Origin: an uncultured Isosphaeraceae bacterium
GTDB lineage: Bacteria > Planctomycetota > Planctomycetia > Isosphaerales > Isosphaeraceae
Assembly (NCBI GenBank): GCA_937858365.1
Contig: CALLYK010000373.1
Coordinates: 1 to 17,863 of the forward strand
Reading direction: 5' to 3'
Length of the DNA stretch: 17,863 nucleotides
In this document: positions 111-17,863 of the stretch, piece by piece
How positions within the stretch are numbered: the stretch's first letter is position 1
How the letters are laid out: every line of letters starts with the position of its first letter
The notes under the pieces: model-generated
Told to the model about the DNA's origin: nothing
The model's input: only the letters and a program-made list of their open reading frames with translations
Database searches by the model: none
Position numbers and translations under genes: made by a program

Positions 111-116
111 TTCGGC

Positions 117-2025: not shown

Positions 2026-2035
2026 ATTTCCTGGT

Positions 2036-3268
2036 TCAAGGCGTCGGTCCGCAGAGGGCCGCGACCAGGCTGCGAACGAACGGCTCCACGTCCGTGACCA
2101 AACCGATGGTCTGGAAGGTCCCTCGGTCCGTGAGTTTGGTCACGGTGGCCGGGTTGATGTCCACGCAGACGACCTTCACCCCAGCCGGCAGCAGGTTGCC
2201 CGTGGCGATCGAGTGCAGGGTCGTGGCGATCATCAGGCAGAACCCGACGCCCCCATGGATCAGGCGCCGCATTTCGGCCTGGGCCTTCAGGACGTCGGTG
2301 ATCACCTCCGGCAGTGGGCCGTCGTCGCGTATCGAGCCGGCCAAGACCATCGCCACGTTCTTTTGAACGCATTCATACATGATCCCTGACTTGAGCAGCC
2401 CCGCCCGCACGGCCGCGGCGATGCCGCCGGCGCGTCGGATGGTATTGATCGCCCGCAGGTGGTGTTCGTGACCGTGTTCCACCGCCTCGCCGCGATCGAG
2501 CGAGACCCCGAGCGAGGTGTTGAAGAGGGCCTGTTCAATGTCGTGCGTGGCCAGCGCGTTGCCCGCGAAGAGCACGTCCACCCAGCCGCCGCGAATGAGT
2601 TCGGCGACGTGCGCCGAAGACCCTGTGTGGACGATCGCCGGCCCGGCTACGAGCAGGACCTTCCTCCCTTCCGCGCGGGTCGCACGCATGAGGTCGGCCA
2701 CGGTTTGGAGGCTTGCCGCCTTGGGTTTTTCGCTGGAGACGTTCGAGTTCATGAAGCCGAAGACCTGGGCCTCGCGCGGCCGGTCGATCGGCACGACGCG
2801 CACGCCGCCATGCCCCACCACGAACGCCTGACCAACCGTGACGTCGGTCATGGGCACACACCAGGCGGTCTTGCGTTCGATGTCCACGGCGATGCCGCAG
2901 TCCATTTCCTGGTCGGCCACTTCAACCCAGCGACCGGCGAGACGCACCTGCGTGGGTTGGTTGGTCGTGCTGTAGAAAGCGTCGGGGAACGCGCCCGCGA
3001 TGTCGGCCGGCACCAGATGTGCGTCTTCGGGGTGAACAGGCATGGCGCCGTGTTCGACGAGGTCGCCCAAGATGTCGTCGAGTTGCGCGGCCGAGTCGGC
3101 CTGGACGGCGATGCGCGCGTAGCTCGCGTCCACGCGACGCGCCCCGACCTTGCACTCGCGGATCTCGAACGAGCCACCCATGAGGAGGATGCGGTCGAGG
3201 ATCTTGGGCAAGAGGAGGGAGTCGATCAGATGGCCGCGGACCTCGATTTCCTCGGAAACGCCAGGCAT
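2036..3268 (-). CDS. TIGR00300 / LOR-SDH bifunctional-enzyme conserved-domain family protein (about 410 aa). Possibly an archaeal-type NAD-dependent ornithine cyclodeaminase-like enzyme.
   Basis: The six-frame ORF runs to 3412. The likely true start is the internal ATG at 3268, preceded by GAAGGGGG 7 nt upstream. The N-terminus (MPGVSEEIEVRGHLIDSLLLPKILDRILLMGGSFEI) matches my recollection of the family's conserved N-terminus (GH[IL]IDS..LPK.LD.I...GG.F). A Gly-rich dinucleotide-binding-like region follows (KVLLVAGPAIVHTGSS ... VLAGSIRDDGPL). Family assignment is from memory, not a search. Confidence 0.55.
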   Translation of the reverse strand: MPGVSEEIEVRGHLIDSLLLPKILDRILLMGGSFEIRECKVGARRVDASYARIAVQADSAAQLDDILGDLVEHGAMPVHPEDAHLVPADIAGAFPDAFYSTTNQPTQVRLAGRWVEVADQEMDCGIAVDIERKTAWCVPMTDVTVGQAFVVGHGGVRVVPIDRPREAQVFGFMNSNVSSEKPKAASLQTVADLMRATRAEGRKVLLVAGPAIVHTGSSAHVAELIRGGWVDVLFAGNALATHDIEQALFNTSLGVSLDRGEAVEHGHEHHLRAINTIRRAGGIAAAVRAGLLKSGIMYECVQKNVAMVLAGSIRDDGPLPEVITDVLKAQAEMRRLIHGGVGFCLMIATTLHSIATGNLLPAGVKVVCVDINPATVTKLTDRGTFQTIGLVTDVEPFVRSLVAALCGPTP

Positions 3269-3356
3269 GACGGGCCCCCTTCGCGGGAATGGAAGTGGCC
3301 CGCATTGTAACCGACGAAGGCCCCGTGCTGGGTAGCTTGGACGATCAACGCCCCGT

Positions 3357-3701
3357 TCAAGGGCCGATGTCTTTGGCCGTGATCTTGCGTTGTTCAACCA
3401 TTTGATAGACACGCGATGTCAACGGGGTGAGGATGCCGAAGATCATGGTCCCGAGAAGCCCGGGCAGCCCCAGACCATACCAAACGCCGAATGGTTGACC
3501 CATGAGAAGGCCCGCCACACCGGCGCAAAAGAGGACAGCGCAGACCCCGGTCGTCGTCCACATGACCCCGGTGAGAAAGACACGCCCGCGACCGAGGGGC
3601 GCGAGCGTGCCCATCAAGGTCCCCATCACTCCTCCCGCGACCCCCAAGAGCGTTCCGGGGAGCCAACTATAACGGATCGCGTCGAACCAAGGTTCGCTCA
3701 T
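3357..3701 (-). CDS. Small integral membrane protein (114 aa, about 4 predicted TM helices), function unknown.
   Basis: Start ATG at 3701-3699 follows SD AGAAAGAGG 7 nt upstream. The start overlaps the upstream gene's stop (ATGA, 3698-3701). Gly/Leu/Val-rich hydrophobic segments include LLGVAGGVMGTLMGTLAPL, VMWTTTGVCAVLFCAGVAGLLMG and LGLPGLLGTMIFGILTPL. Confidence 0.55.
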   Translation of the reverse strand: MSEPWFDAIRYSWLPGTLLGVAGGVMGTLMGTLAPLGRGRVFLTGVMWTTTGVCAVLFCAGVAGLLMGQPFGVWYGLGLPGLLGTMIFGILTPLTSRVYQMVEQRKITAKDIGP

Positions 3702-4015
3702 GGCCTGACCTCTTTCTTCAAGTCCTTCCGATGGGCCTCGATCAATTCGCGGGCCGTCGCGGGCGCGAGACGTCCATCGGCCACGAGCACGCGGACCATG
3801 CGCTCGAACGGACCATCCACGGTGAGATCATCCGCGGCCTGGACCTTGGCGATGAAGCGGTCTAAACGCGCCCGCACGGTGGGATAAGAAACACCGTACT
3901 CCGCCGCGAGGGCCTTCAAGGAACCGGACGCCACCACGAAACGCTTGAGAAATTGCCAATCCTCGTCATCAAGCGCCTCGACCCAGCCGGGAAGCGCGCC
4001 GGTGTCTCGCCCCAT
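3698..4015 (-). CDS. DUF2089-like small HTH protein (sigma70 region-4/LuxR-like helix-turn-helix). It lacks the N-terminal zinc ribbon of longer DUF2089 proteins.
   Basis: The six-frame track starts at a TTG (4018). The ATG at 4015-4013 with GAGGA 5 nt upstream is the more likely start. The motif DDEDWQFLKRFVVASGSLKALAAEYGVSYPTVRARLDRFIAKV matches the conserved DUF2089 core as I recall it. It is translationally coupled to the downstream membrane protein. Confidence 0.55.
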   Translation of the reverse strand: MGRDTGALPGWVEALDDEDWQFLKRFVVASGSLKALAAEYGVSYPTVRARLDRFIAKVQAADDLTVDGPFERMVRVLVADGRLAPATARELIEAHRKDLKKEVRP

Positions 4016-4039
4016 CAAGGTCCTCGCGACTGTCGCCGA

Positions 4040-4100
4040 ACCGACCGCGTGTCTCTATCCTTCGCTTCAATAAAGTGAAAGTCAAGATGAATTTTCTGAA
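4040..4100 (-). promoter_or_regulatory. AT-rich island upstream of the DUF2089 operon containing TTGACT (minus-strand sense). It is a putative promoter region.
   Basis: The reverse complement reads ...aaaattcatcTTGACTttcactttattgaagcgaaggatagagac... There is no clean -10 hexamer at 17 +/- 1 nt. It is one of only a few AT-rich islands in the window and lies directly 5' of the gene start at 4015. Confidence 0.25.
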
Positions 4101-4104
4101 AGTT

Positions 4105-4130
4105 GGGGCCTTTTCGAGATGCATGGCCCC
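4105..4130 (-). terminator. Candidate terminator hairpin for the giant gene. GGGGCC and GGCCCC form a 6-bp stem around a 14-nt loop.
   Basis: GGGGCC (4105-4110) pairs with GGCCCC (4125-4130), about 29 nt past the giant gene stop (4159-4161) in the minus sense. The following minus-strand tail is AACUUUCAGAAAAUUC, only weakly U-rich. Confidence 0.3.
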
Positions 4131-4158
4131 GTCATTACGAAGAATGGGGACACGGCAT

Positions 4159-7100
4159 TCACTCGGCGAACTTCCACGGCCCCGAGATCTCGACGTTGCG
4201 GACGCGCGTGGTGGGACTGTCGGCCCAGCGGAAGAGGCCGAAACGACGTGGGGCCCCTTTCTCCAGTGGCGCTTCGCCGAGCCTTTTGCCATTCAGCGTG
4301 ATCGACACCTTGTCGCCCGAAAGCGTGAGGGAGACCCGGTCCCATTCCTTTTCCTTGAACGGGAGCGGTCCTTTGTCGAAGCCGCTGAGTTCGGCGGTGT
4401 TGCCGGGTGAGAGGTCTTCCTGGCCGGTGCCGGGGTCCGTCAGGCGGTGGAGCTGCACACCTTCGGGCCCGAGCAGGAAGACTTGGCCGCCGATCGCCGG
4501 ATGGACCGAAGAGGGGCCCTTCTCGCCCCGAGCCTCATACGTGATCGTCTCGCCGTCGGCCATAGGCCGAGAGTGGAAGAGAGCGGTCTCGTAATCGACG
4601 GACGCGTTGGGGGCTTGCTTCCCGAGGACCTCCGTGTTTTGGGACTGCCAGAAAGAAGGCCAATTCGTGCCGCTCGGTGATCGGAGACCACTCCAGTCCG
4701 TCCACGTTCGCGGGCCGCTAAGTGCAACGCGATCCGGCACGGTGGGTCCCCCTTGGATACGGACGTCGCGCAGGGCGCCCTGGCCCGTGGCCGCCGACTT
4801 GAGGAAGAGCCAGGGAGACGCATCGCGCCGGATCGGTTCGTTGACGACCTGATGATCGGCGAGGAAGAACTGACAGCGCCCCCCCTTCACGACCATCCGG
4901 AAGGGGAGAAGTCCCCGCGCCGGGTCAACGGGTGGGTCGAGCGGGATCGTCCGCACCGCACCTCCGGCCGTGGTGAGTTGGGCATTCTTGCCCTCGGCGT
5001 CCACTTGAAGCGAGGTCCCAGCGTAATCGACGACGACCTGGTCGTCGCTCATCCCCTCGAGTAGGGCTTGGAAATCGAAGTCTCCCGTCAAGGGCGTTGC
5101 GAGGTACAGCCGCTCGGGACCTTGACCGGGAACATGGGCGATTCGGTGGTCCCGCTCTGTCCAAGTTGCCGGAAGCGAAGTCAAACTCGCCGCCCTGCTC
5201 GAATCACGTGAAGCGGTGAGCCAGCGTGAGCTTGGCGGGGAAAGGGCCTCGCCTCGCGCCAGCCGATCGCGTTCGAACGCGAGTCGCAGGGCGTCCAAGG
5301 TCGCCGGCGCGACGTACGGCTCGGGTTGTCCTTGCTGGGGAGGCTGGTTCTGTCGCCGGATCGGTGTTTTGGGCCCATCCGGCGGTCTCTTGGCCCGTTC
5401 TTTCAGAGCGTCGGCCAGCGGCGCCGCCGCTTCCAGGAGGTCGCGATTTGGGAGGACGCCGGCCAGAGCGAGCATCTCGGCCTGGCGCCCTTCCAGGGGC
5501 GCTTGGGGCGGCAGGGCCTTCGTCGCCTTGGTCAACTCCGCGAGCGTCGCGCGGGCCTCGTCGTTCCGGCCTTGTGCGCTCGCCACCAGCGTGGTCAGGG
5601 CCATTTTCACGCGGGCTTGAGGCTCGTCCTTCACGGGGACAGCAGCGAACTTTTCCGCGAGCTCGTCGAGCTTGCCGGCCTCGCGCGCGGCCGCGATCAT
5701 GTCGAAAACGGGAGAACCGAAGGTGCAGCCTTCCGGCGAAAAGACAGGGTATCGAGCGATACGCACGGACTCATGGGAGGCGGAAGGCAAGACCCATTCA
5801 ACGAGGCGCCTGTGGCGTTCCGCGGCGGGAAGGCCCTGGATTTCCCGGAGGAAGTGGGGGGCGTCGGCGATGACCGGGTAATCGCCGATCCAGGCCGCGC
5901 GAACGAGGCGCGCCGCCGGGTCGGGCGCGACCGCCGGTTCAAGAAGGTTTGCCGGCAGGGTCGCAGGCCAATCGCCGGTCAAGGTCGTCGCTCGGACCTT
6001 CACGCGGGTTTGGTCCTTGAAGTGAAAGAGGCCGAAAAGGCGGTCGTTCGCGGGCTCCAGCGGTCGTTCGGCGATCACCCGACCGTTGAGCGAAAGTGAA
6101 ACGGACCCGTCGCGCAGCGCGAGTTTGACCTCGTTCCAATCGTCCGCCTTGAGGGGCAGGGGGCCGGGGCCTTGCTTGATCGCAGGATCGTCCGCGACGT
6201 TGTTGATGGGCAGGCCCGTGGGGTCAAGGTCGGCCTTGTCGGTGATCCAGTGCGCCCGGACCCGATCCGGGTCGAGCTGGAAGACCAAGCGGCCGAGCGC
6301 CGGATGGACCATCTCGGCGCCCGGGACGTAATGGAACTCATAGGAGAGCGTATCCCCATCGCCGAGGGGCCTAACGAACCGGAGCAGGCTGGGTACGGAG
6401 TCGTCGGCGAGCGAGCCGATCGCGCGGTCGATGCGTTGGCCAATGATCACGCCATCGCCGGCTTCCCAGTCGAAGACGCGAGGCGCCGGCTCAGCGCCGC
6501 GCCGCTGATAGATGGCCTGAAACTCCTCGTCCGCGTCCCGCGACGACCTGCGAAGGACCGCGTCCTTACGAGGCTTGACCCTTTCTTTGAAGAAACGGGC
6601 CGACCATTGGCGCAGGTCGTCCCCTTGCAGCAGCTTCACGACGCGAGGGACTTCCGGCCTGCCGTCGATCCTCAAGTCGAGGAATCGCCCACCGGTAGCC
6701 TCCAGCGCGATCCAGGGAGACGATGGGCCTTTGGCCTCGTGAATCAGGCGGCCGTCGATCAGGAAGCGGGTGTGTTCGGGAGCGACGTCGATCGTGAGGC
6801 GAGTTGGTCCGTTTGAGGTGTTGGTGGGCAGGGCAGGGGAGACCGACTCGGAATGCGGTCCGATCATGCCGGGGCCGGCGAGACTGTCTTGGTTTCCCGT
6901 CCCGCCGTCAAACACGTAGTGTTGGCCTGGGGTCAAACCAATCGACTGCCCGCCGTAACTGAGGAGGCCCTGAAATGTGCGGACGTCGATCCGAAAAGTC
7001 CCCGTGATCGGGACCGCGAAGAAAAGGCACGAGTCATCGGGAGCACCCACATGGCCGAGCACGTCCTCCGCGAGCACCCAGCGAGCGACTTGCCCCGCCT

Positions 7101-10100
7101 CCGGGTGCGTTTGCGCCATCTCGTGCGGGGCCGGCCGCCAGAGAGCCGGCAGAGCGTCCGTGGGCGGTTGCGGGCCGACATCGGGGCCCGACCGCGCGTG
7201 ATTGAGAAGAACGGTCATCGCGCGGGAATTGATGGTGTTGCCGATGCGTCCGGCCAGGAGCTGGGCCTCGTTCCTCAGCGCCGGCACGCGCGCGGCCTCC
7301 TGCACGAGGAGCGCCTCGGGCCAATCTCGAGGCGCCTGGGTTTGATTCAGTTCATTCAGATAGACCGTTTGTTCTTGGGGCGAGCTCTGTCTCTTCTCGC
7401 GTTCCTCGCGGGCCGCGATGATCACGGGAAGGGCCTCTTCAGGCCGGCCTCGCGCGATTGCGACCAGGGCAACCAAGGCACCGGCCTGTTCGACCTTGGC
7501 GTCGGCTGCGTTGCGGGCCTCTTCGGCGAGTTCTTCTAGCTTACCGGCCTCGCGCGCCGCGGCGATCAGGGCCCCACTCGTCGAGACAATTCCATCCACC
7601 GCTTGAGGAGGTTGGGCCTTGAAGACGGCAGGGGTCTCATCTGTTGGGGCCCCGCAGGCCAGGAAGCGCACGAGTTTCCGGTCGTTGGTCGGAAGCGTCC
7701 AGGTCCTGAGTCGTTCATACCGCTCGGCTGCGGGGAGCCGCGCGAGCAAGTACGAAAGGCGTTGCAATGCCGGCGCGATGCTCGGCTCGTTGTAAGGGAC
7801 GACGGGAAGGTCGGCGAACTTGCCGAGGGCGAGCAAGGCCTCGTCGAGACGGTCGGCACGCGCGTACTCCACGGCGACGCGCGCCAAGGCGGTCTTCACT
7901 GGACCCGCCGACTGTTCGAAACTCTGGTTCGGAAGCCTCGGTAGTTCCTCGATGGCCTTCTGGTAGTCGTCAAGAAGGGCCGAAGCGGCGTCGGCCTTGT
8001 TCTTCGCGAAGTAGTGCCGCGCCAGGGCGATGCTGAGGTCTCCACCGCCGGCCGTGATCTGTCCGGCCGTGTTGAGTCGCTTGATGGCCCGCGCCACCAC
8101 GAGTTCGGCCGCTTCCGCGCAGGTGGGCGTCTTCAGGGCGGGTAAGGCCGCGTGGCAGGCCAGTTCGGCCGTGTTTTGCAGTGAGTCTTTTTCCAAACGC
8201 GCGGCCAGGTCGGCCAGGCCCTTGGAAGCAGACACGGAATCATCGGCTTTGAGGGCCAACAATGTCCTAAGGACCTTCAGCGGCAATTCGGCCAGGGGTT
8301 CGGCCGCACGGGCCTCGATCCGGCGTTCCAGGTCTTGCCGGGCGTTCGCGCGTAACGCCCAGGTTGCCAGGATCGCGCCGACGCTTCGCGGCGACGTTGT
8401 TCTCGATGCGGCCAAGGAGCTCGGATATAGGAAGGCCTCGCGCGGCCTCGCCTCGGGCAAGACGACCTCGCGAAGCACCGCGTAAACGTCGGCGGGCGGC
8501 ACCTTCGCTTCGACCCAGGCTCGCTCCAGTGGAATGATCGCCTGGATGACCGACTCGGGGCCGGACGTCTGGGCCGGTTCGTTCTGACCATAAACGCTGA
8601 CCACTCTCGTGAGGCGAAGATTGTTCGGCTCCACGTTGATGGGCGTGATCGGCGGCCCGCCGCGCAGGGCGTCGCGCGTGGCCCGTAGAGAGAGGGCCCC
8701 CAGGCCGTTTTCAGCGGCCAGCTTGGCGACCTCAAGGGCCTGTTGAAACCGATCAGCCGTCGTACCGATGGCCTGGGGCTGACTCACAGTGGTGAACGTG
8801 GTTAGCGCTCCAGAAGTGCTCGAAATGGCGAGGGGAGCGGCCGTGGCGGGCGCGGCGGGTTGAAGCCTCACGGCAGCCACGGCCCTGGTCATGACGGCCG
8901 TCGCCGCCGGGGCTGGGACGGACGGCGGGGGTGGAGGCGGTGCCAGTGACGTGCCGCCTGTTGGGGCGGTACCACCCGTCTTGGACGGGACAAGGATTGA
9001 TTCCAGGAGTTCCGTCCAATACGCTTCCGCGCGGGCCTTGTCGCCGGATTCGAGTGCGAGCTGGCCCCACTCTCGCAGGATCGCTTGCGTCCAGATCGCG
9101 TCGGTCTGGCGACGCGCCGCCTCACGGGCCCGCACGGCAAGCGTCTCGCCGATGGGCCGGAGCGACTCGTTTTTCAAGCAGAGTCGGGCCACCGGCCAGA
9201 CCCCCAGCCATTTCGCGGCCACGTCGCGCTGGCGGCTGTTGGCTCGGGCCCCCTTGGGCAGTTCTTCCAGGGGCGACCGATCCACCAAGGTGATGAGTCC
9301 TTTCAGCGCCGAATCGATGCCTTCAGCCTTGCCTTCCGCGAACGCGGCCAGGGAAAGGGCGACGTGTGCGCTCAAGTCGTCCGGCTTCTCGCTCGCGAGG
9401 CGCTTGAGTTCGTCGTTGGCCTCCTTGAAGAGTCCCGGTGTCCTCACGGCGCCCGTCAAGGTGTCGCCGAGAAGGCTGATGAGCGTCGCGTTACGCAGGT
9501 CGCGTGGTTGAACGAGAAGGACCAGGTCGAGGGCCTCGCCATGAGGGGCCGTCGCCCCAACCGGCCAGACGAGGCTGCGCAACGTGCGTTCACGGTCCTC
9601 CTGCTTTTCTAGGGCCCTAAGGGCGACCTGGACTTGATCGCGAAGCTGTTGGCTGAATTGGTCTTGGCCCCCGAACATCGAGGCGGCCGCGTTCAAGGTC
9701 GACGTGTCGGCGAGGGCCCCGTTGTAGATCCGAAGGGAGTCGGCGGGGAAGCCTGCTTGGAGTAGGAGCATGCCTCGCGACATGGACGCGTTCACTCGGC
9801 GATAAGCCTGGTACGCGGGGTCATTCACGTAGTATTCGTCATTGAGTCGATCGGGCCGAAGCAGGAGTGCCCGGGCTTCTTCCGGCCGCTCCGTGCGCCG
9901 ATAAAGCTCGGCCAGGCGACGGGCGATCGTGTTCTCCATGTCGTTGGGATCATTCTTAAAGGTCGGAGTCGCGAGGGTCTCCTTGTACAGGCGCTCGGCG
10001 AGCGGCTGCGTGGCGGGGTCGTTTTCCAACTCTTGCCCGAGCGCCAGGACGGTCGAAGACGTTCGCGGCGAGTTCTCGTCCAAGAGGGCGAAGAGTTCCG

Positions 10101-13100
10101 CGATCGCTTGAGCGCCTTGGGCGGTCCGGCCCGCTCGGAGGTCGATGATCGCCCGGATGCCCTTGCCGCCGTACCATTCGGGCCAGCGTTTCGTCGCCTC
10201 GTCGATCTCCGCGGCGATGGCGTCGAGCTTTCCTTGTCGGTCGGCTACCTGGAGCAGTCGGGCGAGCATGGTCATCGACTGACCGTTCCTGGAATACGAC
10301 ATGATGTTGCTGTCGAGCCCCGACCACGGTGCCGGGGGCCCGGCGCTCGCCTTGGGAATGAGGTAGTCGTGAACGTATTCGTAGAGTTCGGGGAGTTCCC
10401 AAACCTCGTCGCTCGGGCTGTTTAACAACATCTCATAGCGCGAGTTAGGGAGAGACTTCCAGCCCTTCTTGAAGATCTCCAGCGACAGCTCGCGCGTGCT
10501 CGAGTCGTTTTCCAGCGACATCATCAGGTTGGTGATCGCGTACGTCTGACCACGCGCCATCGCCCGTAGGTCGAGGTCCCGAACCAGCGCGATCAACTCG
10601 TCACGCTTGCCGGCCCGCTGGAATGCCTGGATCATCTGATACGCATAACGGCCGAACTGCGCCGGGTCTTTCTTGATGGCGACGGCGTAATGCTCGGCCG
10701 CCGTGGCGAAGTCCTGGGCCTGATAGGCCGTGTTGGCAATCTGTTGACGGAGTGCCGCGTCGTCGGGACGGAGTTCCAGGAGCTTTTTCTGGACCTCCTT
10801 CACCTTGTCGCGCTTGCCGGCCGCGTTGTAGTACATCGAGAGGGTTTGATAGAGGCCGATCGAGCTCGGCGAGCGCGCGACCTGACTTTCCAGCCGCTCG
10901 ATCTGTTCATCGAGCTTGCCAGAGCGCGAGAGTAACTGAAGGGCCTGCATCTGGGCCGCGTCGATCGACCCTGAGACGACATACGGCTGGTTCGAGCGTT
11001 GCGGCGAGCGGCGCATGATTTGGTAGGCCACTTGCAGGGCCTCTTCCATGCGGTCTTGCCGCTGATATTGGGCCATCAAGTTGGCCAGGGCGTTAGGGTC
11101 GTTGCCCGATCGGCGGCGGGCGCGACCCAGCACGGCCTCGGCCAACTCGTGCATGCCAAGCTGGTGCATCTGCTGGGCGAGTTGGACTTGAGTGTTCGCG
11201 TCCAGACGCAGGCCGAAAAGGCGTTCCGCTGCCTTCCGCGCCCGATCGACGTTGCCGCCCAACACGGCCAGGCGCAAGGCCAGCAACTCGCGACGCTGCA
11301 TCAGCTTCTGGTCGGCCGGCTCGACGGAATCGACCAACGCGAGCGCTTCCAGCGGCTCGTTGCGATTGGCCCGCAGTTCCGCCAGCGAGAGCTTCATCTC
11401 CACGTCGTTGGGGACGCTCTCGACCACCGTCGTCAGATCGCGCAGGGCCTCGTCTTTCTCGTCGTTCCACCACTTGATGTAAGCGAGGGCCAGGCGCTCG
11501 TAGTTAGGGTCGCGCATCGCGGCCTTCAGGCGGTCCTCGAGGTGCTTGGTCAGGTCGCTCAGGACGTCGCCTTGGCGATAGACCTCATAAGCGTTCCGCA
11601 AAACGCCGATGGCGGCCATATCGAAATAGGCCCCAGGCATGGGGAAGTCCAAGTTGATAAACCGCGAGGTGTTCCTGCCCAGAGAGATCGACACGCCCTG
11701 CCGGTTCTGGAATGTGCTTGAGGAGGCGCTTGCGCCCTTGGCCCGGCGGGCCACTCGTTCGGGTGCGGAAAGGCCGTCCAGGGCGTGGTCCAGAAGGCGG
11801 AGCACGTCGGGCATCCGCTTGTTCTCGTAACAATGGCCCATCGCTTGGGTGAAGCCGTTCAGCGCCATGCTTACCATCGTCGCCCCGCTTGGTTGCCTAG
11901 CGGTCAGGGCCCGATCGTACTTGTCCGCGAGGACGATCAATCGGTCGATGTCGCCACGGGAGGCCGCGAGGTTGAGGGCCACACTCAAACTGGACGGGTC
12001 GTTCGCGCTTTCCGTCATTTCGCGATAGAGGGCCTCTTCGGCCTCAGTACGCTTGGCCCGCTTCAACTCGGTGATCAAGCTGTTCGTGACGGCCCCAGCC
12101 CATTCCGGTTCGCGCTTCCGGAGCGTCTCATAAGAGGCGACGAGGGTGTCGAGCTCGTCGTCGGGAAGGGGGGGCGTCCGATCGACGTTTCCCTGAGTGG
12201 GCACGGCCGCGCGCAAGAGGCCCGCCGAGGCCCCAGGGTTGGTCCGGCCGGCCACCGATTGCAAGAACGCCCAGAGGCACTGCGGGTCGTTGGGGGCCGA
12301 TCGTGCCAGGAGCAGCCCCGCTTTGTAAAATTCCTTGGGCTCGTTGCGCAGCGATGTCAGATAAAACCAGTCGCGGACGGCGCGCGGGTCGGCGTTGGGG
12401 GCCTCGGCCGCTTCACGCAGCTGCTTCAAGAGGGCCTCGTCGGTCTCGTCGCGCTGGGCGACCACCACGAGCCAGGCCAGCGCGGCTTGACGCGCCTGAC
12501 CGTAGTCGTAGGGCGCCCAGGCCCGGCCCGATTGTGACATCTGCATCGAGTAATTCGCGTAGCGTGGGTCGAGTCCGGTGGCGCCGCGGACCTCGTAGTT
12601 CTGCGCGGCGCGTCGATACATCGGGTTCGATGTGTAGAGTGACTGGTTCGCCTGGGCGAGCGCGCTGACACCCGCCGGACGACCGCCCGACGTCTTCTTC
12701 CGCGTCCTCTCGATCAAGTTCAACTGGTCATCGTCCACGCGGAGGGAGAGCAGGTCGCGGAAACGTTGGGACGACTCCTTCAGCCTCTCGGCTTGCTGAA
12801 GCGCGAAGGCCTCTCGGTAGAGAAGGTCCCAGTTGGCCGGGTCCTTGCGCAAGAGTTTCTCCGTGATCGAGAGCACCGTCTCGTGCTTGCCCGCGGCGAT
12901 GAGGCTGTCGATCGCCTGGAGGACCCGATGGACCTCGGCCTCGTCGTTGGCGACGGCCATCCAAACGTTCTCGGCCTCCGTGGTCTCACCGGCCTTTGTG
13001 TAGAGCGTGGCCAAGCGAGTCGTGCCGTCGAATCCTGGGGCCACATCGTTGATTTGCTTCTGGTATCGCGCGGCCGAGTTGAAGTCTCCCTCGGTCTCCG

Positions 13101-15609
13101 CCAGGTTGGAAAGCTGCTGAAGGAGCTGTGTGTCGCGAGAGTTGGCCGCGAGCAGGCTTTCCAACTGCTGACGCGCGGCCATATAGTCGCCGGCCGACGT
13201 GTACGCTTGCGCCAGGCAGGCCGCTTTCTCGCGTGGCTGCTGCTGAACGTCTCCCTCTTGAAAGGCCCGCTCAATGCGCGCCGTCAGGCGGTCGAACTGG
13301 TTTTGCTGAAGGTAGAGGTTCGCGAGCTTGGCCACGATGCCCACCTTGGCGTCGAGCGCGGGTGTCTTGTCGAAGGCCCGCCAATAAATCTCGATCGCTT
13401 CTTCCGTGCGAAACTGACCGGCGAGTGCGTCGCCCAGCGTGAGGGCGGCCTTGGGGTCGGCCTCGTTCAAGCGCGCCGCGCGGCGGAGGGCCTTCAGCCC
13501 TTCCTCGGACTCGCCCAACCCAAAGCAAAGCTCGGCGAACGCCTGGTAGTGTTCCGGATTGTTGGGGGCCGCGGCGAGCAGTTCGCGCCCCGCCTTCAGG
13601 GCCTCATCACGACGGCCAAGGCGAGCCTCGAGGCGAGCGATCGCGGTGAGGTGCTCGGTCCGCGCCCTACGGTCGATCGCGGCCAACTTGCGGAAGAGGT
13701 CGGCGGCGGCGCCGAGATTTCCCGACGATTCCTCGAAGCGCGCCGCGGCCACGTGCGCCGGGACCGACTTCGGCTCGAGTTCGATCGCCTTGCGGATCGC
13801 CGCGAGCGCGTCGGGGAGACGTTGGGCCGCCTCGTCATATCGTGCCAGTTTCAGGTATCGTTCCGAGGTCGCTTCCTTGCCGGCATTGAGTTCCCCTTTC
13901 AACGTCTCGATCATGGCGCCGAGCTTACCGCCGGCTTGCAGGTCCTTGATCCGCGCGGTGAGCACGGCCTCGCGCTGCTCGGGATCGTCGGCGAGCGGTT
14001 CGGCCGCGTCGAGCTCGGCGAGGGCCTCGTCGTAACGCTCCAATTGCGCCAGCAAGTCGGCGTGTTTGATGCGCGGCTCGAACGACTTCGGGTCCATCCC
14101 CACGGCCTCCGCGGCGACCTTCTCGGCCTCTTTCCTGTAGCCAAAGCCGGAAAGGACCTCGGCCAGGCGCGCCAGGTTTGGCGCTGTGCGGTTTGGTCCT
14201 TCAGCCATCGCCGACCAAGCGGTCAGGGCCTCCTCACCGCGCTTCTGAGAGTGCAGGTTTTCGCCGAGATACTCGCGGAATTGCGGGGCGTCGGGGGCCA
14301 GACCCACGGCCTTGCGATAGAGTGAGAGGGCCTCGTCGTTGAGTTCGGCCTTGCGGAAGAGTTCGGCCACCTGGGCGGCGACACCCGCGTCTTTGGGGCG
14401 GGCCTCCAGGAGCTTCCGCCATACGGTCGCGGCGGCCTGCTTGCGCTCGACTTCCGGCCGCGCGGGGTCGCGCAGAATCAAGCGGCCCCAGTCGCGGATC
14501 GTGTCGGGATTGCCGGGGTCGGTCTTGGCCATTTCCTCGTACTGGCCGGCGGCCTCGCCGAACTTCTTCTCGGCCACGAGTTGCTCGACCAGGGCCAGCC
14601 GAAGTTCCTTGCGCGAAGGGGCCAACTTGACCGCCGCGGTAAGGGCCTCGCGCGCCTCGGGGGCCCGCCCAAGCGACGCGAGCACGCGGGCCCGGCGCGC
14701 GATCGCGTCGATGTCGTCCGGGTGCTTCTTGATCCAGCCTTCGTAATAAGTGGCTAGGCCGTTTTGGTCGTCGTTGCGCAGGAAGACCTCTTCCACCTTG
14801 CGTCTGACCTCCTTATGCAGCCAGCTCTCGGGGTTGAGGTTGGCGAGAAGGCCCTCGAAGTCGGCGACGGCATCGGTCTTCTTGCCCAGGCGGACCTTCA
14901 AATCGGCGACCTCCATCTTGTATTGGACCTTGCGATACGGGTCGCGCGCGGCGGCGGCGAGTTTCTCATAACGAGGCAAGGCCAGGGCCGACTGCCCCTC
15001 CTCGGCGAGCGTCAGGGCGATCTGCTCGGCCACGCGCGCGTCTTCGGGGAACTGCTTTTCCAGCCGTTCCCAAACCTTGAGGGCCTCGGCATCGCGACGG
15101 GCACGCTGATGGACGCGGCCCAGGGCCTGATACATCTCCATCGAATCGGCGCGGGCCGGCTTGCGCGCCAAGGCCCGCTCGAAGGCGTCGACGGCCGCGT
15201 CGGGGCGACCCACCAGCACGAGTGTCTGACCCAGATAGAACGAAGCCAGGGCGTCGTCGGGCCGGGTCTTTTCGGCCTCGCTGAAGGCGGTCACGGCGGA
15301 CGCGTCACGCCCGCGTTGCGCCTCGATCAGGCCAAGGACCATCCACGAGGCGCCGTCTTTGGGGTCCTGCGCCGTCTTTTCTCGATAGCGCGCGGTGAGC
15401 TGGTCGAGCGTGCCCCGTTCGACATGGTAGCCGTAAACGCGATCCAGCGCGGTGCCGCGCTTGGGTGTTTTTTCAAGCAGGCCGACGAACCGGTCGACCA
15501 CCTTCGCCTCGCGTTCGGAATCGGCATCGTCTTGGCCGAAGGCCGCCAAGGTGGCCAAGACCGTCAGGCTAAGACCCGTCGACCACCATCGGGACGCACG
15601 AAGACGCAT
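4159..15609 (-). CDS. Giant secreted multidomain protein (about 3,817 aa). It has a signal peptide, a TPR-like solenoid of about 2,200 aa, a Pro-rich linker, an alpha-helical region of about 500 aa, and two tandem modules of about 600 aa. Each module ends in two LamG/DUF1080-like jelly-roll domains. The architecture recalls the Rhodopirellula DUF1581/DUF1583 paralog families.
   Basis: One uninterrupted minus-strand frame covers 11.45 kb. The track's start (15786) is a 5' extension. The ATG at 15609-15607 has AGGGAGGA 7 nt upstream and is followed by a Sec-type signal peptide (MRLRASRWWSTGLSLTVLATLAAFG|QDD). Nt about 15530..9000 hold degenerate 34-residue A/L/E/R-rich TPR-like repeats. The linker TGGTAPTGGTSLAPPPPPPSVPAPAATAV is at about 8885-8960. 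Each C-terminal module holds two domains ending in DUF1080-like motifs (SPWIALEATGGRFLDLRIDGRP, FGLFHFKDQTRVKVRATTLTGDW, SPWLFLKSAATGQGALRDVRIQGGP, FGLFRWADSPTTRVRNVEISGPW). Confidence 0.85.
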   Translation of the reverse strand: MRLRASRWWSTGLSLTVLATLAAFGQDDADSEREAKVVDRFVGLLEKTPKRGTALDRVYGYHVERGTLDQLTARYREKTAQDPKDGASWMVLGLIEAQRGRDASAVTAFSEAEKTRPDDALASFYLGQTLVLVGRPDAAVDAFERALARKPARADSMEMYQALGRVHQRARRDAEALKVWERLEKQFPEDARVAEQIALTLAEEGQSALALPRYEKLAAAARDPYRKVQYKMEVADLKVRLGKKTDAVADFEGLLANLNPESWLHKEVRRKVEEVFLRNDDQNGLATYYEGWIKKHPDDIDAIARRARVLASLGRAPEAREALTAAVKLAPSRKELRLALVEQLVAEKKFGEAAGQYEEMAKTDPGNPDTIRDWGRLILRDPARPEVERKQAAATVWRKLLEARPKDAGVAAQVAELFRKAELNDEALSLYRKAVGLAPDAPQFREYLGENLHSQKRGEEALTAWSAMAEGPNRTAPNLARLAEVLSGFGYRKEAEKVAAEAVGMDPKSFEPRIKHADLLAQLERYDEALAELDAAEPLADDPEQREAVLTARIKDLQAGGKLGAMIETLKGELNAGKEATSERYLKLARYDEAAQRLPDALAAIRKAIELEPKSVPAHVAAARFEESSGNLGAAADLFRKLAAIDRRARTEHLTAIARLEARLGRRDEALKAGRELLAAAPNNPEHYQAFAELCFGLGESEEGLKALRRAARLNEADPKAALTLGDALAGQFRTEEAIEIYWRAFDKTPALDAKVGIVAKLANLYLQQNQFDRLTARIERAFQEGDVQQQPREKAACLAQAYTSAGDYMAARQQLESLLAANSRDTQLLQQLSNLAETEGDFNSAARYQKQINDVAPGFDGTTRLATLYTKAGETTEAENVWMAVANDEAEVHRVLQAIDSLIAAGKHETVLSITEKLLRKDPANWDLLYREAFALQQAERLKESSQRFRDLLSLRVDDDQLNLIERTRKKTSGGRPAGVSALAQANQSLYTSNPMYRRAAQNYEVRGATGLDPRYANYSMQMSQSGRAWAPYDYGQARQAALAWLVVVAQRDETDEALLKQLREAAEAPNADPRAVRDWFYLTSLRNEPKEFYKAGLLLARSAPNDPQCLWAFLQSVAGRTNPGASAGLLRAAVPTQGNVDRTPPLPDDELDTLVASYETLRKREPEWAGAVTNSLITELKRAKRTEAEEALYREMTESANDPSSLSVALNLAASRGDIDRLIVLADKYDRALTARQPSGATMVSMALNGFTQAMGHCYENKRMPDVLRLLDHALDGLSAPERVARRAKGASASSSTFQNRQGVSISLGRNTSRFINLDFPMPGAYFDMAAIGVLRNAYEVYRQGDVLSDLTKHLEDRLKAAMRDPNYERLALAYIKWWNDEKDEALRDLTTVVESVPNDVEMKLSLAELRANRNEPLEALALVDSVEPADQKLMQRRELLALRLAVLGGNVDRARKAAERLFGLRLDANTQVQLAQQMHQLGMHELAEAVLGRARRRSGNDPNALANLMAQYQRQDRMEEALQVAYQIMRRSPQRSNQPYVVSGSIDAAQMQALQLLSRSGKLDEQIERLESQVARSPSSIGLYQTLSMYYNAAGKRDKVKEVQKKLLELRPDDAALRQQIANTAYQAQDFATAAEHYAVAIKKDPAQFGRYAYQMIQAFQRAGKRDELIALVRDLDLRAMARGQTYAITNLMMSLENDSSTRELSLEIFKKGWKSLPNSRYEMLLNSPSDEVWELPELYEYVHDYLIPKASAGPPAPWSGLDSNIMSYSRNGQSMTMLARLLQVADRQGKLDAIAAEIDEATKRWPEWYGGKGIRAIIDLRAGRTAQGAQAIAELFALLDENSPRTSSTVLALGQELENDPATQPLAERLYKETLATPTFKNDPNDMENTIARRLAELYRRTERPEEARALLLRPDRLNDEYYVNDPAYQAYRRVNASMSRGMLLLQAGFPADSLRIYNGALADTSTLNAAASMFGGQDQFSQQLRDQVQVALRALEKQEDRERTLRSLVWPVGATAPHGEALDLVLLVQPRDLRNATLISLLGDTLTGAVRTPGLFKEANDELKRLASEKPDDLSAHVALSLAAFAEGKAEGIDSALKGLITLVDRSPLEELPKGARANSRQRDVAAKWLGVWPVARLCLKNESLRPIGETLAVRAREAARRQTDAIWTQAILREWGQLALESGDKARAEAYWTELLESILVPSKTGGTAPTGGTSLAPPPPPPSVPAPAATAVMTRAVAAVRLQPAAPATAAPLAISSTSGALTTFTTVSQPQAIGTTADRFQQALEVAKLAAENGLGALSLRATRDALRGGPPITPINVEPNNLRLTRVVSVYGQNEPAQTSGPESVIQAIIPLERAWVEAKVPPADVYAVLREVVLPEARPREAFLYPSSLAASRTTSPRSVGAILATWALRANARQDLERRIEARAAEPLAELPLKVLRTLLALKADDSVSASKGLADLAARLEKDSLQNTAELACHAALPALKTPTCAEAAELVVARAIKRLNTAGQITAGGGDLSIALARHYFAKNKADAASALLDDYQKAIEELPRLPNQSFEQSAGPVKTALARVAVEYARADRLDEALLALGKFADLPVVPYNEPSIAPALQRLSYLLARLPAAERYERLRTWTLPTNDRKLVRFLACGAPTDETPAVFKAQPPQAVDGIVSTSGALIAAAREAGKLEELAEEARNAADAKVEQAGALVALVAIARGRPEEALPVIIAAREEREKRQSSPQEQTVYLNELNQTQAPRDWPEALLVQEAARVPALRNEAQLLAGRIGNTINSRAMTVLLNHARSGPDVGPQPPTDALPALWRPAPHEMAQTHPEAGQVARWVLAEDVLGHVGAPDDSCLFFAVPITGTFRIDVRTFQGLLSYGGQSIGLTPGQHYVFDGGTGNQDSLAGPGMIGPHSESVSPALPTNTSNGPTRLTIDVAPEHTRFLIDGRLIHEAKGPSSPWIALEATGGRFLDLRIDGRPEVPRVVKLLQGDDLRQWSARFFKERVKPRKDAVLRRSSRDADEEFQAIYQRRGAEPAPRVFDWEAGDGVIIGQRIDRAIGSLADDSVPSLLRFVRPLGDGDTLSYEFHYVPGAEMVHPALGRLVFQLDPDRVRAHWITDKADLDPTGLPINNVADDPAIKQGPGPLPLKADDWNEVKLALRDGSVSLSLNGRVIAERPLEPANDRLFGLFHFKDQTRVKVRATTLTGDWPATLPANLLEPAVAPDPAARLVRAAWIGDYPVIADAPHFLREIQGLPAAERHRRLVEWVLPSASHESVRIARYPVFSPEGCTFGSPVFDMIAAAREAGKLDELAEKFAAVPVKDEPQARVKMALTTLVASAQGRNDEARATLAELTKATKALPPQAPLEGRQAEMLALAGVLPNRDLLEAAAPLADALKERAKRPPDGPKTPIRRQNQPPQQGQPEPYVAPATLDALRLAFERDRLARGEALSPPSSRWLTASRDSSRAASLTSLPATWTERDHRIAHVPGQGPERLYLATPLTGDFDFQALLEGMSDDQVVVDYAGTSLQVDAEGKNAQLTTAGGAVRTIPLDPPVDPARGLLPFRMVVKGGRCQFFLADHQVVNEPIRRDASPWLFLKSAATGQGALRDVRIQGGPTVPDRVALSGPRTWTDWSGLRSPSGTNWPSFWQSQNTEVLGKQAPNASVDYETALFHSRPMADGETITYEARGEKGPSSVHPAIGGQVFLLGPEGVQLHRLTDPGTGQEDLSPGNTAELSGFDKGPLPFKEKEWDRVSLTLSGDKVSITLNGKRLGEAPLEKGAPRRFGLFRWADSPTTRVRNVEISGPWKFAE
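4162..5950 (-). repeat. Module copy 2 of the duplicated unit, forming the C-terminus of the giant protein.
   Basis: Motifs in the same order: ...LPAAERHRRLVEWVLP ... IAAAREAGKLDELAEKFAAV ... PLTGDFDFQAL ... SPWLFLKSAATGQGALRDVRIQGGPTVP ... TYEARGEKGPSSVHPAIGGQVFLL ... WDRVSLTLSGDKVSITLNGKRLGEAPLEK ... FGLFRWADSPTTRVRNVEISGPW. DNA of the paralogous segments 5659-5704 and 7528-7573 is about 80% identical by hand alignment. Confidence 0.5.
5951..7850 (-). repeat. Module copy 1 (intragenic, protein level) of the duplicated unit of about 600 aa in the giant gene.
   Basis: Order of motifs: ...LPAAERYERLRTWTLP ... IAAAREAGKLEELAEEARNA ... PITGTFRIDV ... SPWIALEATGGRFLDLRIDGRPEVP ... SYEFHYVPGAEMVHPALGRLVFQL ... 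WNEVKLALRDGSVSLSLNGRVIAERPLEP ... FGLFHFKDQTRVKVRATTLTGDW. Boundaries are approximate (+/- 100 nt). Confidence 0.5.
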
Positions 15610-15896
15610 CGTCTGGTCCTCCCTGTTCGCGGGGCATCGAGAGCGAGCGGCACCAGGCAAGGCCGCTTGTCCCCGAAGAGCATAGTCGTGGAGACGGGGC
15701 CAACGCAACGTAGCGGAAGCGGATTTCCCGAATCGACACGACCGGGGCCCATGTGCCTTCAGCATCGAAACAGTCCTGGGCGACATCGAGAAGTGGGAAA
15801 GGGCCCACCTGATTTCCTTTGACGGACGAATTCCGTCGGGGTAAGTTGTGACAAAATCGGAAACAGATTTCGCCTTCCCTAGCGGAGCATGCGTCG
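15610..15896. promoter_or_regulatory. Divergent intergenic control region (287 bp) between the giant gene and the MoxR operon. It holds candidate promoters on both strands and three GATTTC[CG] heptamers.
   Basis: Toward MoxR: TTGACG (15819-15824), 17-nt spacer, TAAGTT (15842-15847), then an AT-rich TTGTGACAAAATCGGAAACAGATTTCG. Toward the giant gene (minus sense): TTGCGT, 18-nt spacer, TATGCT at about 15680-15710. GATTTCC occurs at 15722-15728 and 15811-15817, and GATTTCG at 15866-15872. Confidence 0.4.
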
Positions 15897-16904
15897 ATGA
15901 CCAACACCGAGGAGGCGAAGGCCCAGCTTGACGCCTTCCGCGCCGATTTTCAGGCGATGCGCCGCGAGGTCGGCAAAGTCATCGTCGGCCATGAAGAGAT
16001 CATTGACGGCACGCTCACGGCCCTGATCGCGGGCGGCCACGTTCTGTTGGAAGGCGTGCCCGGTTTGGGCAAGACCTTGCTCGTCCGCACGTTGGCCGAC
16101 GCTTTGCATCTTAAGTTCCAGCGCATTCAGTTCACGCCCGACCTCATGCCGGCCGACCTGATCGGCACGAACGTCGTCCACGAGAGCGACGACGGCCGTC
16201 GCCGGTTCGATTTCCAGCCAGGCCCCGTCTTCGCGAACCTCGTCCTGGCCGACGAGATCAATCGGGCCACACCCAAAACGCAGTCGGCCTTGCTCGAAGC
16301 CATGGCGGAGAAGTCGGTCACGGTCGCCGGCAAGACACATCAGCTTGATCGCCCCTTCCTGGTGATGGCCACCCAAAACCCGTTGGAAATGGAAGGGACC
16401 TACCCGCTGCCGGAGGCCCAACTCGATCGCTTCCTGTTCAAACTCCTCGTGAAGTTCCCTACGGCGGGCGAGATCGAGGCGATCCTCAGCCGCACGACCG
16501 AGGCCGGCGAACCCAGGGCGGAGGCGATCTTCGACGGGCCGCGCATCCTCGAACTGGCCCGTCTGGCCCGCCAGGTCCCCATCGCCGACGAACTGCGGCG
16601 CTACGGCGTGACGCTTGTGCTGGCGACACATCCGGAAAGTGAACACGCGACGGAAATGACGAAACGTTTCGTCCGATACGGGGCCAGTCCGCGGGGTGCT
16701 CAAGCGATCGTCTTGGGGGCGAAGATCCGGGCGATTCTGGATCATCGTTATCATGTCTCGCGCGAGGACTTGCGGTCGGTCGCCCACGCGGCCTTGCGGC
16801 ATCGGATGATCCTGAACTTCGAGGGCCAGGCCGAGAACATCGAGCCCGACGACATCCTCGACGACATTATCGGGCGCGTGGAAGCGCCCGCCGTGGCAGT
16901 CTGA
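15897..16904 (+). CDS. moxR: MoxR-family AAA+ ATPase (335 aa).
   Basis: Walker A (LLEGVPGLGKTLL), Walker B (NLVLADEINRATPKTQSALLEAMAE) and sensor region (FLVMATQNPLEMEGTYPLPEAQLDRF) are present. The C-terminal helical lid follows. GGAG lies about 9 nt upstream of the ATG. Overall size and layout are typical of MoxR/RavA-like ATPases. Confidence 0.9.
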   Translation: MTNTEEAKAQLDAFRADFQAMRREVGKVIVGHEEIIDGTLTALIAGGHVLLEGVPGLGKTLLVRTLADALHLKFQRIQFTPDLMPADLIGTNVVHESDDGRRRFDFQPGPVFANLVLADEINRATPKTQSALLEAMAEKSVTVAGKTHQLDRPFLVMATQNPLEMEGTYPLPEAQLDRFLFKLLVKFPTAGEIEAILSRTTEAGEPRAEAIFDGPRILELARLARQVPIADELRRYGVTLVLATHPESEHATEMTKRFVRYGASPRGAQAIVLGAKIRAILDHRYHVSREDLRSVAHAALRHRMILNFEGQAENIEPDDILDDIIGRVEAPAVAV

Positions 16905-16937
16905 TTCTCCAACCATTGCCGAGGGCCCATCCGGCTC

Positions 16938-17426
16938 ATGAAGCGTCTTCTCGTCGTGATCGCCGTGGCCTCGCCGATGCTATGCGCCTCCTCCGTTGAG
17001 GCGCAGGTCGTGGACCCAACGATCCTTGAGGGCCTTCGTCGCCACGTGCCGCCCGAGCATCCGCTTCAAGACGACTCGCCGCCCAACGAAATCATCGAAG
17101 CACGCTTGCGCATCGCATCGCGTCAGTTCAATGCGGCGTTGGATCGCGTCTTTCCGTCATCGTCGTTGTCCAAGCCCGACCGGACGGCGGTATCGTCGCT
17201 TCTGGAGTGGTCGACCAAGTGCATGGAGGCCCGGTTGGAAGCGGCCGATCGCGACTCCGACCGCAAGGTCGCCTACGCGATCGAGGCGGCCCGCTTCCGC
17301 AAGATCGAGGGACTCGTCTTGGAGCGCTTGCGCGGTCCGGCAGCGTCGTTTTCCGCCGAGGACGCCGATCGCGTGGCCTTTCATCGCTTGGGTCTGGACC
17401 TGAAACAAGCCACCCTCGGCCGCTAG
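16938..17426 (+). CDS. Small secreted or periplasmic hypothetical protein (162 aa) inserted between moxR and the DUF58 gene.
   Basis: Signal peptide MKRLLVVIAVASPMLCASSVEA|Q. GAGGG lies upstream in the 33-nt gap after moxR. The mature part is helical and charged. No family was recognised. The frame carries many serine and arginine residues, and most codon third positions are G or C. Confidence 0.5.
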   Translation: MKRLLVVIAVASPMLCASSVEAQVVDPTILEGLRRHVPPEHPLQDDSPPNEIIEARLRIASRQFNAALDRVFPSSSLSKPDRTAVSSLLEWSTKCMEARLEAADRDSDRKVAYAIEAARFRKIEGLVLERLRGPAASFSAEDADRVAFHRLGLDLKQATLGR

Positions 17427-17451
17427 TCCCTTGGGACCTTTAGGAGAGCGC

Positions 17452-17863
17452 ATGGCCCTTTTCGGTTCGGACTTCCTGGCCAAGCTGGAATACCTCTCCC
17501 TGGTCTCCCGCCGGGTCTTTCAGGGGCAGGTCCTCGCCCAAAGGCGGACCAAGCAAATGGGGGGCGGCATCGAGTTCGCGGACCACCGCGACTACACCCC
17601 GGGCGACGATTTCCGGCACATCGACTGGACGGTCTTCGCCGCACTGCTGCGACAGGAACAATTGGCCGAAAAAGTCGGCTGGCAAAGGTCGTTATTTCTG
17701 GATGCCGAACAACTCCCGCACGAGGTGTATCACATCCCGCGCGAAACGAGTTGTCTCTTGAATACAAAAGTTTCCGGCAGCGGCTTGATCATCGGCCAGT
17801 TGTCCGGGGGCGTGACGATCCAACCCCGCGATGTGCTACAGCAGATTTCGACCGGACGCACAG
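17452..17863 (+). CDS. DUF58-like protein (classic MoxR partner), N-terminal 137 aa. It is truncated by the window end.
   Basis: ATG at 17452 follows AGGAGA 5 nt upstream and lies 25 nt after the previous stop. The hallmark DUF58 motif is present: GGGIEFADHRDYTPGDDFRHIDW (compare G.G.EF...R.Y..GDD.R.IDW). Downstream sequence fits less well (..RSLFLDAEQL instead of the usual LLLD.S.SM). A lower-GC patch occupies about 17690-17790. Confidence 0.55.
   Translation, partial: MALFGSDFLAKLEYLSLVSRRVFQGQVLAQRRTKQMGGGIEFADHRDYTPGDDFRHIDWTVFAALLRQEQLAEKVGWQRSLFLDAEQLPHEVYHIPRETSCLLNTKVSGSGLIIGQLSGGVTIQPRDVLQQISTGRT

Follow-up and report, generated by a model that had tools for sequence, protein, structure and literature searches.

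A giant exported TPR protein encoded beside a MoxR/DUF58 operon in Planctomycetes: a candidate Bat-like envelope module

Contig CALLYK010000373.1 of an uncultured Isosphaeraceae bacterium (assembly GCA_937858365.1) carries a giant gene for an exported tetratricopeptide repeat (TPR) protein that is arranged head to head with moxR, the gene of a MoxR-family AAA+ ATPase. The stretch analyzed here, referred to as the window, is this one complete contig of 17,863 bp. A preliminary description had proposed a secreted giant of about 3,800 amino acids (aa), transcribed divergently from moxR across 287 bp, and, on the moxR side, a 162-aa signal-peptide open reading frame (ORF) wedged between moxR and a DUF58 gene. 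This layout was borne out: the giant ORF encodes 3,816 aa with a signal-peptide-like start, the divergent spacer has the expected length, and the three plus-strand genes are all present with the described strands and sizes (Table 1). The GC content by codon position supports coding for the giant gene, moxR, orf162 and the first 63 codons of DUF58.

Table 1. Features of the window, with the giant gene and the moxR side first and the other genes of the contig last
Feature	Position	Strand	Basis
Giant gene; exported TPR/helical-repeat protein, 3,816 aa, with two C-terminal lectin-like modules	4159..15609	-	Single ORF, GC content at third codon positions (GC3) 0.80, Pfam
Sec signal peptide predicted for the giant protein, MRLRASRWWSTGLSLTVLATLAAFG	15535..15609	-	Read from sequence
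N-terminal TPR/alpha-helical region of the giant, about 2,200 aa, common to all homologs including short forms	8923..15435	-	Pfam, tblastn
Pro/Ala/Thr-rich low-complexity linker between TPR body and C-terminal part, contains TGGTAPTGGTSLAPPPPPPSVPAPAATAV	8764..8985	-	Sequence
C-terminal module 1; a helical segment precedes two beta-rich domains (DUF1581-like, then DUF1583_N)	5968..7737	-	Self-comparison; DUF1583_N at end
C-terminal module 2; layout as in module 1, concanavalin A (ConA)-like/DUF1080-like beta-sandwich character	4162..5832	-	Pfam DUF1581 and DUF1583_N
Divergent intergenic spacer, 287 bp	15610..15896	.	Between giant gene and moxR
moxR	15897..16904	+	AAA_3 217 bits, AAA_lid_2 59 bits, Walker motifs
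orf162; predicted small secreted protein (162 aa), lineage-specific insert	16938..17426	+	GC3, hydrophobic N-terminus
DUF58 gene, first 63 codons	17452..17640	+	Similarity to DUF58 of relatives
Unmatched contig end, 223 bp, in place of the remaining DUF58	17641..17863	.	GC, codon signal, no similarity
SPFH/Band 7 protein, 554 aa	271-1935	+	
LOR/SDH plus ArgZ-like (arginine dihydrolase-type) enzyme, 458 aa	2036-3412	-	
114-aa hydrophobic small membrane protein and DUF2089 helix-turn-helix (HTH) protein	3357-3701 and 3698-4018	-	

The minus-strand reading frame of the giant is open from position 15786 to 4159, and a credible start is the ATG at 15609, which is preceded by GGGAGGA 7 nt upstream and lies about where the ortholog alignments begin. 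Setting the start at this ATG gives the 3,816-aa product and the 287-bp distance to moxR. The N-terminus (MRLRASRWWSTGLSLTVLATLAAFG followed by QDD) displays the n-region, h-region and polar pattern of a signal peptide, and its hydrophobic character is kept in an alignment of homologs (A2). GC contents of 0.70, 0.48 and 0.80 at the three codon positions are typical of coding sequence. Pfam models of many TPR families (TPR_19, TPR_14, TPR_16, TPR_CcmH_CycH and others) matched the N-terminal ~1,700 residues. Homologs with 44 to 69% identity over the N-terminal 600 aa were found at more than 90 loci, and some of them are short forms that lack both C-terminal lectin-like modules: the tblastn alignments of loci L018, L114, L143 and L144, and also L137 (~2,200), stop at giant residue ~1,700 to 2,240, near the linker. 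Since short forms without the C-terminal modules exist, the TPR body constitutes the constant part of the giant family. At L001 the TPR part and the C-terminal part occupy overlapping reading frames, reflecting either two genes or a frameshift. Tandem same-strand paralogs of the giant gene were observed at L155/L160 (both on VFQT010000150.1) and at L005 (6-548 and 1911-8678); only the first copy is paired with a moxR operon.

The moxR product has the hallmarks of a MoxR-family AAA+ protein, with Pfam scores of 217 bits for AAA_3 (cut-off 27) and 59 bits for AAA_lid_2 and with intact Walker A (GVPGLGKT) and Walker B (LVLADE) motifs. It is 63 to 83% identical to orthologs that head a five-gene operon. 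Both moxR and the giant gene are intact and show strong coding signatures. Within the spacer that separates them, a promoter scan found no sigma-70-type site, and a comparison of shared k-mers over 36 orthologous spacers revealed no 8-mer present in more than 5 of them.

Recurrence of the divergent pairing had been named as the check to make on the proposed link between giant and moxR, and the pairing does recur when loci are collected from either side. The scan that started from MoxR used one genome per species and returned 80 loci. A locus was considered informative if its MoxR was at least 60% identical and its sequence reached 3 kb or more upstream (n = 21). A divergent giant homolog was located upstream of moxR in 13 of these 21 loci, which are labeled Isosphaeraceae, Pirellulales, Planctomycetaceae or unclassified Planctomycetota. 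The second scan searched metagenome contigs, using as query an alignment that covers the giant's first 600 residues, and likewise returned 80 loci. The moxR operon adjoins the giant gene in 45 of them, in five arrangements. Most frequently, moxR-DUF58-BatA-VWA is divergent upstream of the giant gene (33 loci, including near-duplicates and representing ~30 distinct lineages), with gaps of 159 to 2,023 bp (median, 379 bp). At 10 loci, which belong to one clade, it is the gene of a 575-aa protein that lies divergent upstream, and moxR is also found right after the stop codon of the giant gene in L130, L136 and L142. The remaining arrangements are represented by one locus each: in L094, moxR directly follows the giant's stop codon and no 575-aa gene was seen upstream; in L107, the operon lies upstream in the same direction; and in L153, operon genes are convergent downstream. 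The five arrangements hold 46 entries but 45 loci; L151, where the 575-aa gene is divergent, is entered solely under the 10, and L094 has an entry of its own. Eleven further loci showed no operon gene but are not informative, with less than 2.5 kb upstream, and 24 lack an operon gene in the visible sequence.

On a neighbor-joining tree of the giant N-terminus, the divergent state is found on the deepest and shallowest branches alike, and the rearranged clade is monophyletic. Wide gaps between giant and moxR hold differing, unrelated genes, such as PadR and monooxygenase genes in L004 and the gene of a beta-helix protein in L081. Linkage is kept down to 44% identity for the N-terminal 600 aa of the giant and 63% for MoxR. 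The genes of the giant and of the operon are thus kept together across many lineages and arrangements, and their linkage is well supported. Persistence of linkage through rearrangements, while the other flanking genes change, is what selection for linkage would be expected to produce, rather than inherited gene order. Farther afield, a true homolog of the giant (28% identity over 921 aa) is encoded co-directionally upstream of moxR at L041. In five Verrucomicrobia-type loci and one Lacipirellula locus (L025, L027, L028, L029, L034 and L062; positions ~1-8,300), a reading frame on the strand of moxR stays open for more than 2,700 aa and ends ~1.8 kb upstream of that gene. The large frame of L029 (Prosthecobacter) encodes TPR domains and no DUF1583 modules, and behind it lies the gene of a 609-aa protein related to the 575-aa protein. 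We considered the Verrucomicrobia frame as an ortholog of the giant and rejected it, as the similarity is at the TPR level only (24% over 319 aa); it is a positional analogue.

The expected continuation of the MoxR/DUF58 operon into VWA or Bat-like genes was seen in orthologous loci, which encode BatA_N/VWA proteins; in the window, the contig ends at 17863. Full-length DUF58 genes lie close to moxR in the orthologous loci. At L001, whose MoxR is 83% identical, the gene order is moxR, DUF58 (292 aa), BatA_N plus VWA (630 aa), VWA plus VWA plus GATase1-like (~900 aa) and the 575-aa protein. This order recurs in dozens of loci, and BatA_N/VWA proteins were detected by homology in at least 40 loci. 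The BatA-like protein of L001 matched the BatA N-terminal domain (PF07584) with 44 bits and VWA_2 with 67 bits. A hydropathy scan showed two N-terminal hydrophobic segments and one C-terminal segment in the BatA-like protein and the same pattern in the second VWA protein. The hydropathy pattern of the operon's VWA proteins agrees with the published topology of a BatA-type protein, BB0173 of Borrelia, which resides in the inner membrane and has its VWA domain in the periplasm (PMC5700661). DUF58 and every VWA domain of the relatives' operon contain the DxSxS motif of the metal ion-dependent adhesion site (MIDAS).

No Pfam domain was found in the 575-aa protein of L001. This protein has hydrophobic segments within residues ~94 to 236, then a charged region that reads as a coiled coil, and a conserved C-terminal motif, IPxGHRQTIRxYFExIRP. 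Its gene changes position yet stays beside the giant gene in L152 (19202-20500), in the L130 clade (L130 2526-4070) and in L029. Because the 575-aa gene remains next to the giant gene when the cluster is rearranged, these loci hint at a direct partnership of the two proteins. At L107 (1139-2593), too, the gene adjoins that of the giant.

The two C-terminal modules of the giant constitute an internal repeat (27% identity over ~600 columns, E 3e-41 in a self-comparison). Pfam assigned the C-terminus to DUF1583_N (PF20407; 250.6 bits) and DUF1581 (PF07619; 81.4 bits), each in two stretches and above the gathering score. A match of module 2 to 3keto-disac_hyd (PF06439) was weak and under the cut-off (E 1.6e-4, 22.2 bits); the homolog at L130 reached 27.3 bits versus a cut-off of 26.8, without an individually significant stretch. 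A single-sequence search against the PDB gave no match. A profile of 37 module sequences (A3) matched the DUF1080 proteins 4jqt, 3s5q and 3imm in the PDB at E values of 2e-4 to 3e-3, and LamG-type SHBG only at an E value of ~0.5. An AlphaFold model of the module, built without a deep alignment, was all-beta and poor, with a predicted local distance difference test (pLDDT) score of 48; its Foldseek matches were tandem galectins and laminin LG4-5 pairs. These results suggest a ConA-like sandwich fold of the DUF1080 type for the beta-rich halves of both modules. The preliminary description had spoken of LamG-like heads, which was roughly right for the fold class, on marginal evidence; the domains are C-terminal tails, which some family members lack. 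They allow no inference of a catalytic role. A word-indexed sequence search with module 2 found nothing, and the same type of search with the module profile returned as its sole match a 297-aa fragment that is 99% identical to the giant's last module. This fragment (P0001) is encoded on a 977-bp JGI metagenome contig, so that the same or a very close organism has been sampled elsewhere.

The small ORF between moxR and DUF58, orf162, has a hydrophobic N-terminus and a coding-type GC3, and its product had no match in Pfam and NCBIfam. The preliminary description had placed it between two genes that are normally adjacent. The ORF is present and adjacency is indeed usual elsewhere, with moxR-DUF58 distances of mostly ~50 to 200 bp in 160 related loci; a homolog of orf162 was found in none of these loci (0/160), and the ORF is thus no conserved part of the locus. 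The family is rare: an exhaustive search of 1.84 billion sequence clusters at E <= 1e-3 yielded 12 representative clusters. Its proteins comprise ~150 to 180 aa, except for P0005 (429 aa), which appears to contain the domain three times. P0002, the closest relative at 60% identity, is encoded on a JGI contig of 1,658 bp (sample 3300047160), where it is flanked on either side by a partial gene of the same orientation and where the genes are spaced as in the window. We considered orf162 as a core component on account of this spacing and rejected the idea as the default reading, given its absence from the 160 loci and the location of other relatives next to a glycosyltransferase gene (L161, 1328-1831) and, in two tandem copies, just behind the 3′ end of a gene recognized by eye as that of an RND-type transporter (L162, 416-1473). 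From its distribution, we conclude that orf162 is a lineage-specific insert rather than a conserved component. Another insert between moxR and DUF58 was found at L100 (7974-8447), a 157-aa ORF that, recognized by eye, presumably encodes a GxxExxY-type protein. At L021 (11000-11715), the two genes are separated by repeat-rich sequence that looks noncoding. The moxR-DUF58 spacer seems to tolerate insertions.

We propose that the giant is the TPR component of a Planctomycete envelope module composed of MoxR, DUF58, VWA and TPR proteins, and we assign this reading a probability of roughly 55%. The linkage of the genes is observed, and from it we infer that their products cooperate. In the simplest model, MoxR, as a cytoplasmic AAA+ ring, and DUF58, as a cytoplasmic VWA-like adaptor with a DxSxS MIDAS, would act on the membrane-anchored proteins of the operon (BatA_N plus VWA, VWA plus VWA plus GATase1-like and the 575-aa coiled-coil protein), which would bridge the two compartments and whose VWA/MIDAS domains are predicted to face the periplasm. 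The giant would be exported via its signal peptide, and its ~2,200-aa TPR solenoid could form a long scaffold and a docking place for the VWA domains. The two ConA-like modules at its C-terminus are likely to bind a ligand in the envelope, such as glycan, and MoxR, together with DUF58, would power assembly or remodeling of the complex by hydrolyzing ATP on the cytoplasmic side. As MoxR and DUF58 carry no export signals while the giant has a signal peptide, any effect on the giant must pass through the membrane VWA proteins. It is in this indirect sense that we infer, with the preliminary description, that MoxR services a periplasmic scaffold.

Several observations weigh against this proposal. 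In the window itself, DUF58 is truncated and the contig carries no VWA gene. The TPR matches of the giant are generic and all lie under the curated NCBIfam cut-offs, general TPR models having been used rather than BatC- or BatE-specific ones. A search for the BatD domain and the BatE SH3 domain in the giant, orf162 and seven operon-side ORFs of L001 found neither at E <= 1e-3. The fold assignment of the C-terminal modules relies on marginal E values and the model with a pLDDT of 48. Deletion of bat genes in Leptospira produced no phenotype (PMC3557215). Finally, linkage is incomplete on both sides: the giant was not seen in 8 of the 21 informative MoxR-first loci, and 24 giant-first loci lack a visible operon gene. 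Several of these 24 (L096, L141, L146, L147 and L157) have flanks of ~1.2 to 2.4 kb or more on both sides, which indicates that unlinked giant paralogs exist.

The state of DUF58 at the contig end raises the possibility that the local module is degenerate, hit by foreign or mobile DNA at nucleotide ~17640, or that the last 223 bp are chimeric, so that this particular locus does not work. Residues 1 to 63 of DUF58 are nearly identical to those of L001 and 68 to 84% identical in most close Planctomycete loci. The Pfam match in the window is confined to residues 44 to 63, with 22.5 bits versus a cut-off of 23.4. Homology stops after residue 63, and the MIDAS position reads DAEQL instead of DxSxS. 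The 223-bp tail has a GC content of 56%, compared to 64% in the neighboring genes, and a weak codon-position signal that does not support coding. No similarity was detected between the tail and the 160 loci, the rest of the window, the PLSDB plasmids or, in all frames, the downstream operon proteins. The window being a complete contig, the assembly broke at this very point, and orf162 shows that the moxR-DUF58 spacer has already taken up an insertion, as it has at L100 and L021. On the other hand, moxR and the giant gene are preserved in full and have strong coding signals, the remaining operon genes may simply be on another contig, and neither a terminal inverted repeat nor a transposase fragment or a target duplication could be recognized in the 223 bp. 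A repeat search over 15500-17863 found only short pairs at chance level, and an Rfam scan of the window gave no match. The contig end may be an insertion junction or a mis-join (chimeric end), and the local operon may be interrupted. We regard a nonworking local copy as possible, though on balance doubtful; it would be compatible with the giant acting as the TPR component of the module in relatives. As DUF58 is cut off on the contig, the locus should not be annotated as a complete system.

It is also conceivable that giant and operon are mere neighbors, the giant being an independent envelope or surface protein whose adjacency to moxR stems from inherited gene order or a shared promoter region. 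The unlinked and the tandem giant paralogs would fit this explanation, as would the MoxR orthologs without an upstream giant and the lack of a conserved motif in the 36 orthologous spacers. However, mere neighborhood does not readily account for linkage that persists through five arrangements and at low identities while all other flanking genes change, or for a 575-aa gene that moves and yet remains beside the giant gene. We consider this explanation unlikely. Going beyond the module proposed above, the giant, the 575-aa protein and the MoxR/DUF58/VWA proteins might build an ATP-remodeled, periplasm-spanning scaffold specific to Planctomycetes (possibly Verrucomicrobia), which would tie the cytoplasmic membrane to glycans of the cell wall or outer layer via lectin-like ends and serve as a structural component of the unusual cell envelope found in these bacteria. 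This extension is speculative, and we rate its chance of being correct in full as low.

The genes on the other side of the giant are not part of the conserved neighborhood: no counterparts of the SPFH, ArgZ-like, DUF2089 and small membrane protein genes were found beside the giant in the relatives' loci of both scans. The stop of the DUF2089 HTH gene overlaps the start of the gene for the 114-aa hydrophobic protein by 4 nt.

Among known systems, the three-gene operons of MoxR, DUF58(vWA) and the transglutaminase-like YebA (Zhang and Aravind 2012, PMC3495828) share with the present locus a core of MoxR and a DUF58-type vWA protein predicted to act near the membrane. They differ in their partners: no transglutaminase-like protein is encoded in L001 or the window, and the partners here comprise BatA-type VWA proteins and the TPR giant. 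The MoxR-vWA ternary conflict systems (Kaur et al. 2020, PMC7159879) likewise combine a MoxR-vWA core with a large third component and have been reported in Planctomycetes, and MoxR gave a secondary Pfam match to bpMoxR (50 bits), but a defense system with the giant as invader sensor is highly improbable, given that AAA_3 scored far higher (217 bits), that Pfam detected no third-component (peptidase, iSTAND or FtsH) or effector domain in the giant, moxR, orf162 and L001 operon proteins (VMAP and beta-propeller models were not run specifically), that PADLOC returned only a weak generic AAA match and nothing for the other six proteins, and that the giant has a signal peptide and its VWA partners are BatA-type membrane proteins. 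The modules of the giant match the DUF1581/DUF1583 families strongly (PF07619 and PF20407) and the ConA-like fold of the DUF1080/3-keto-disaccharide hydrolase domains weakly (PF06439; 4jqt, 3s5q and 3imm); in contrast to both groups, they form a tandem duplicate fused to a 2,200-aa TPR body.

The closest resemblance in composition is to the widespread Bat-type loci, which combine MoxR, DUF58, VWA and TPR proteins and for which a periplasmic complex has been proposed (PMC3557215, PMC5700661). With these loci and their spirochete homologs (batI/moxR, batII/DUF58 and BatA to BatE), the system described here shares MoxR and DUF58, then membrane BatA_N-VWA proteins in orthologous loci, and a linked TPR protein, here with generic TPR matches. 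It differs in that the TPR protein has 3,816 aa rather than a few hundred, is usually encoded divergently and carries two DUF1581/DUF1583_N lectin-like modules, in that the second VWA protein contains two VWA domains and a GATase1-like domain, and in that a 575-aa membrane coiled-coil protein ends the operon. Of the enlarged Bat-like system suggested at the outset, the MoxR/DUF58/VWA/TPR composition was recovered in the orthologs; BatD and the BatE SH3 domain were not found in the proteins scanned, and "Bat-like" therefore denotes an analogy of composition only and not strict membership. A conserved partner of 2,200 to 3,800 aa with DUF1581/DUF1583_N is not described in the searchable literature, in which DUF1583 is mentioned only for cyanophage genomes. 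From the conserved pairing, one very large exported TPR protein emerges as a specific candidate for the object that the MoxR/VWA machinery might assemble or hold in place, and the pairing gives the uncharacterized DUF1581/DUF1583 domains a first genomic context. The locus is also found in Singulisphaera sp. PoT (L004; NZ_CP186274.1, about 6.373-6.394 Mb), a cultured strain whose genome is complete, so that the idea is directly testable. MoxR/DUF58/VWA/TPR clusters as such are already known; the new part is the giant partner that bears DUF1581 and DUF1583_N.

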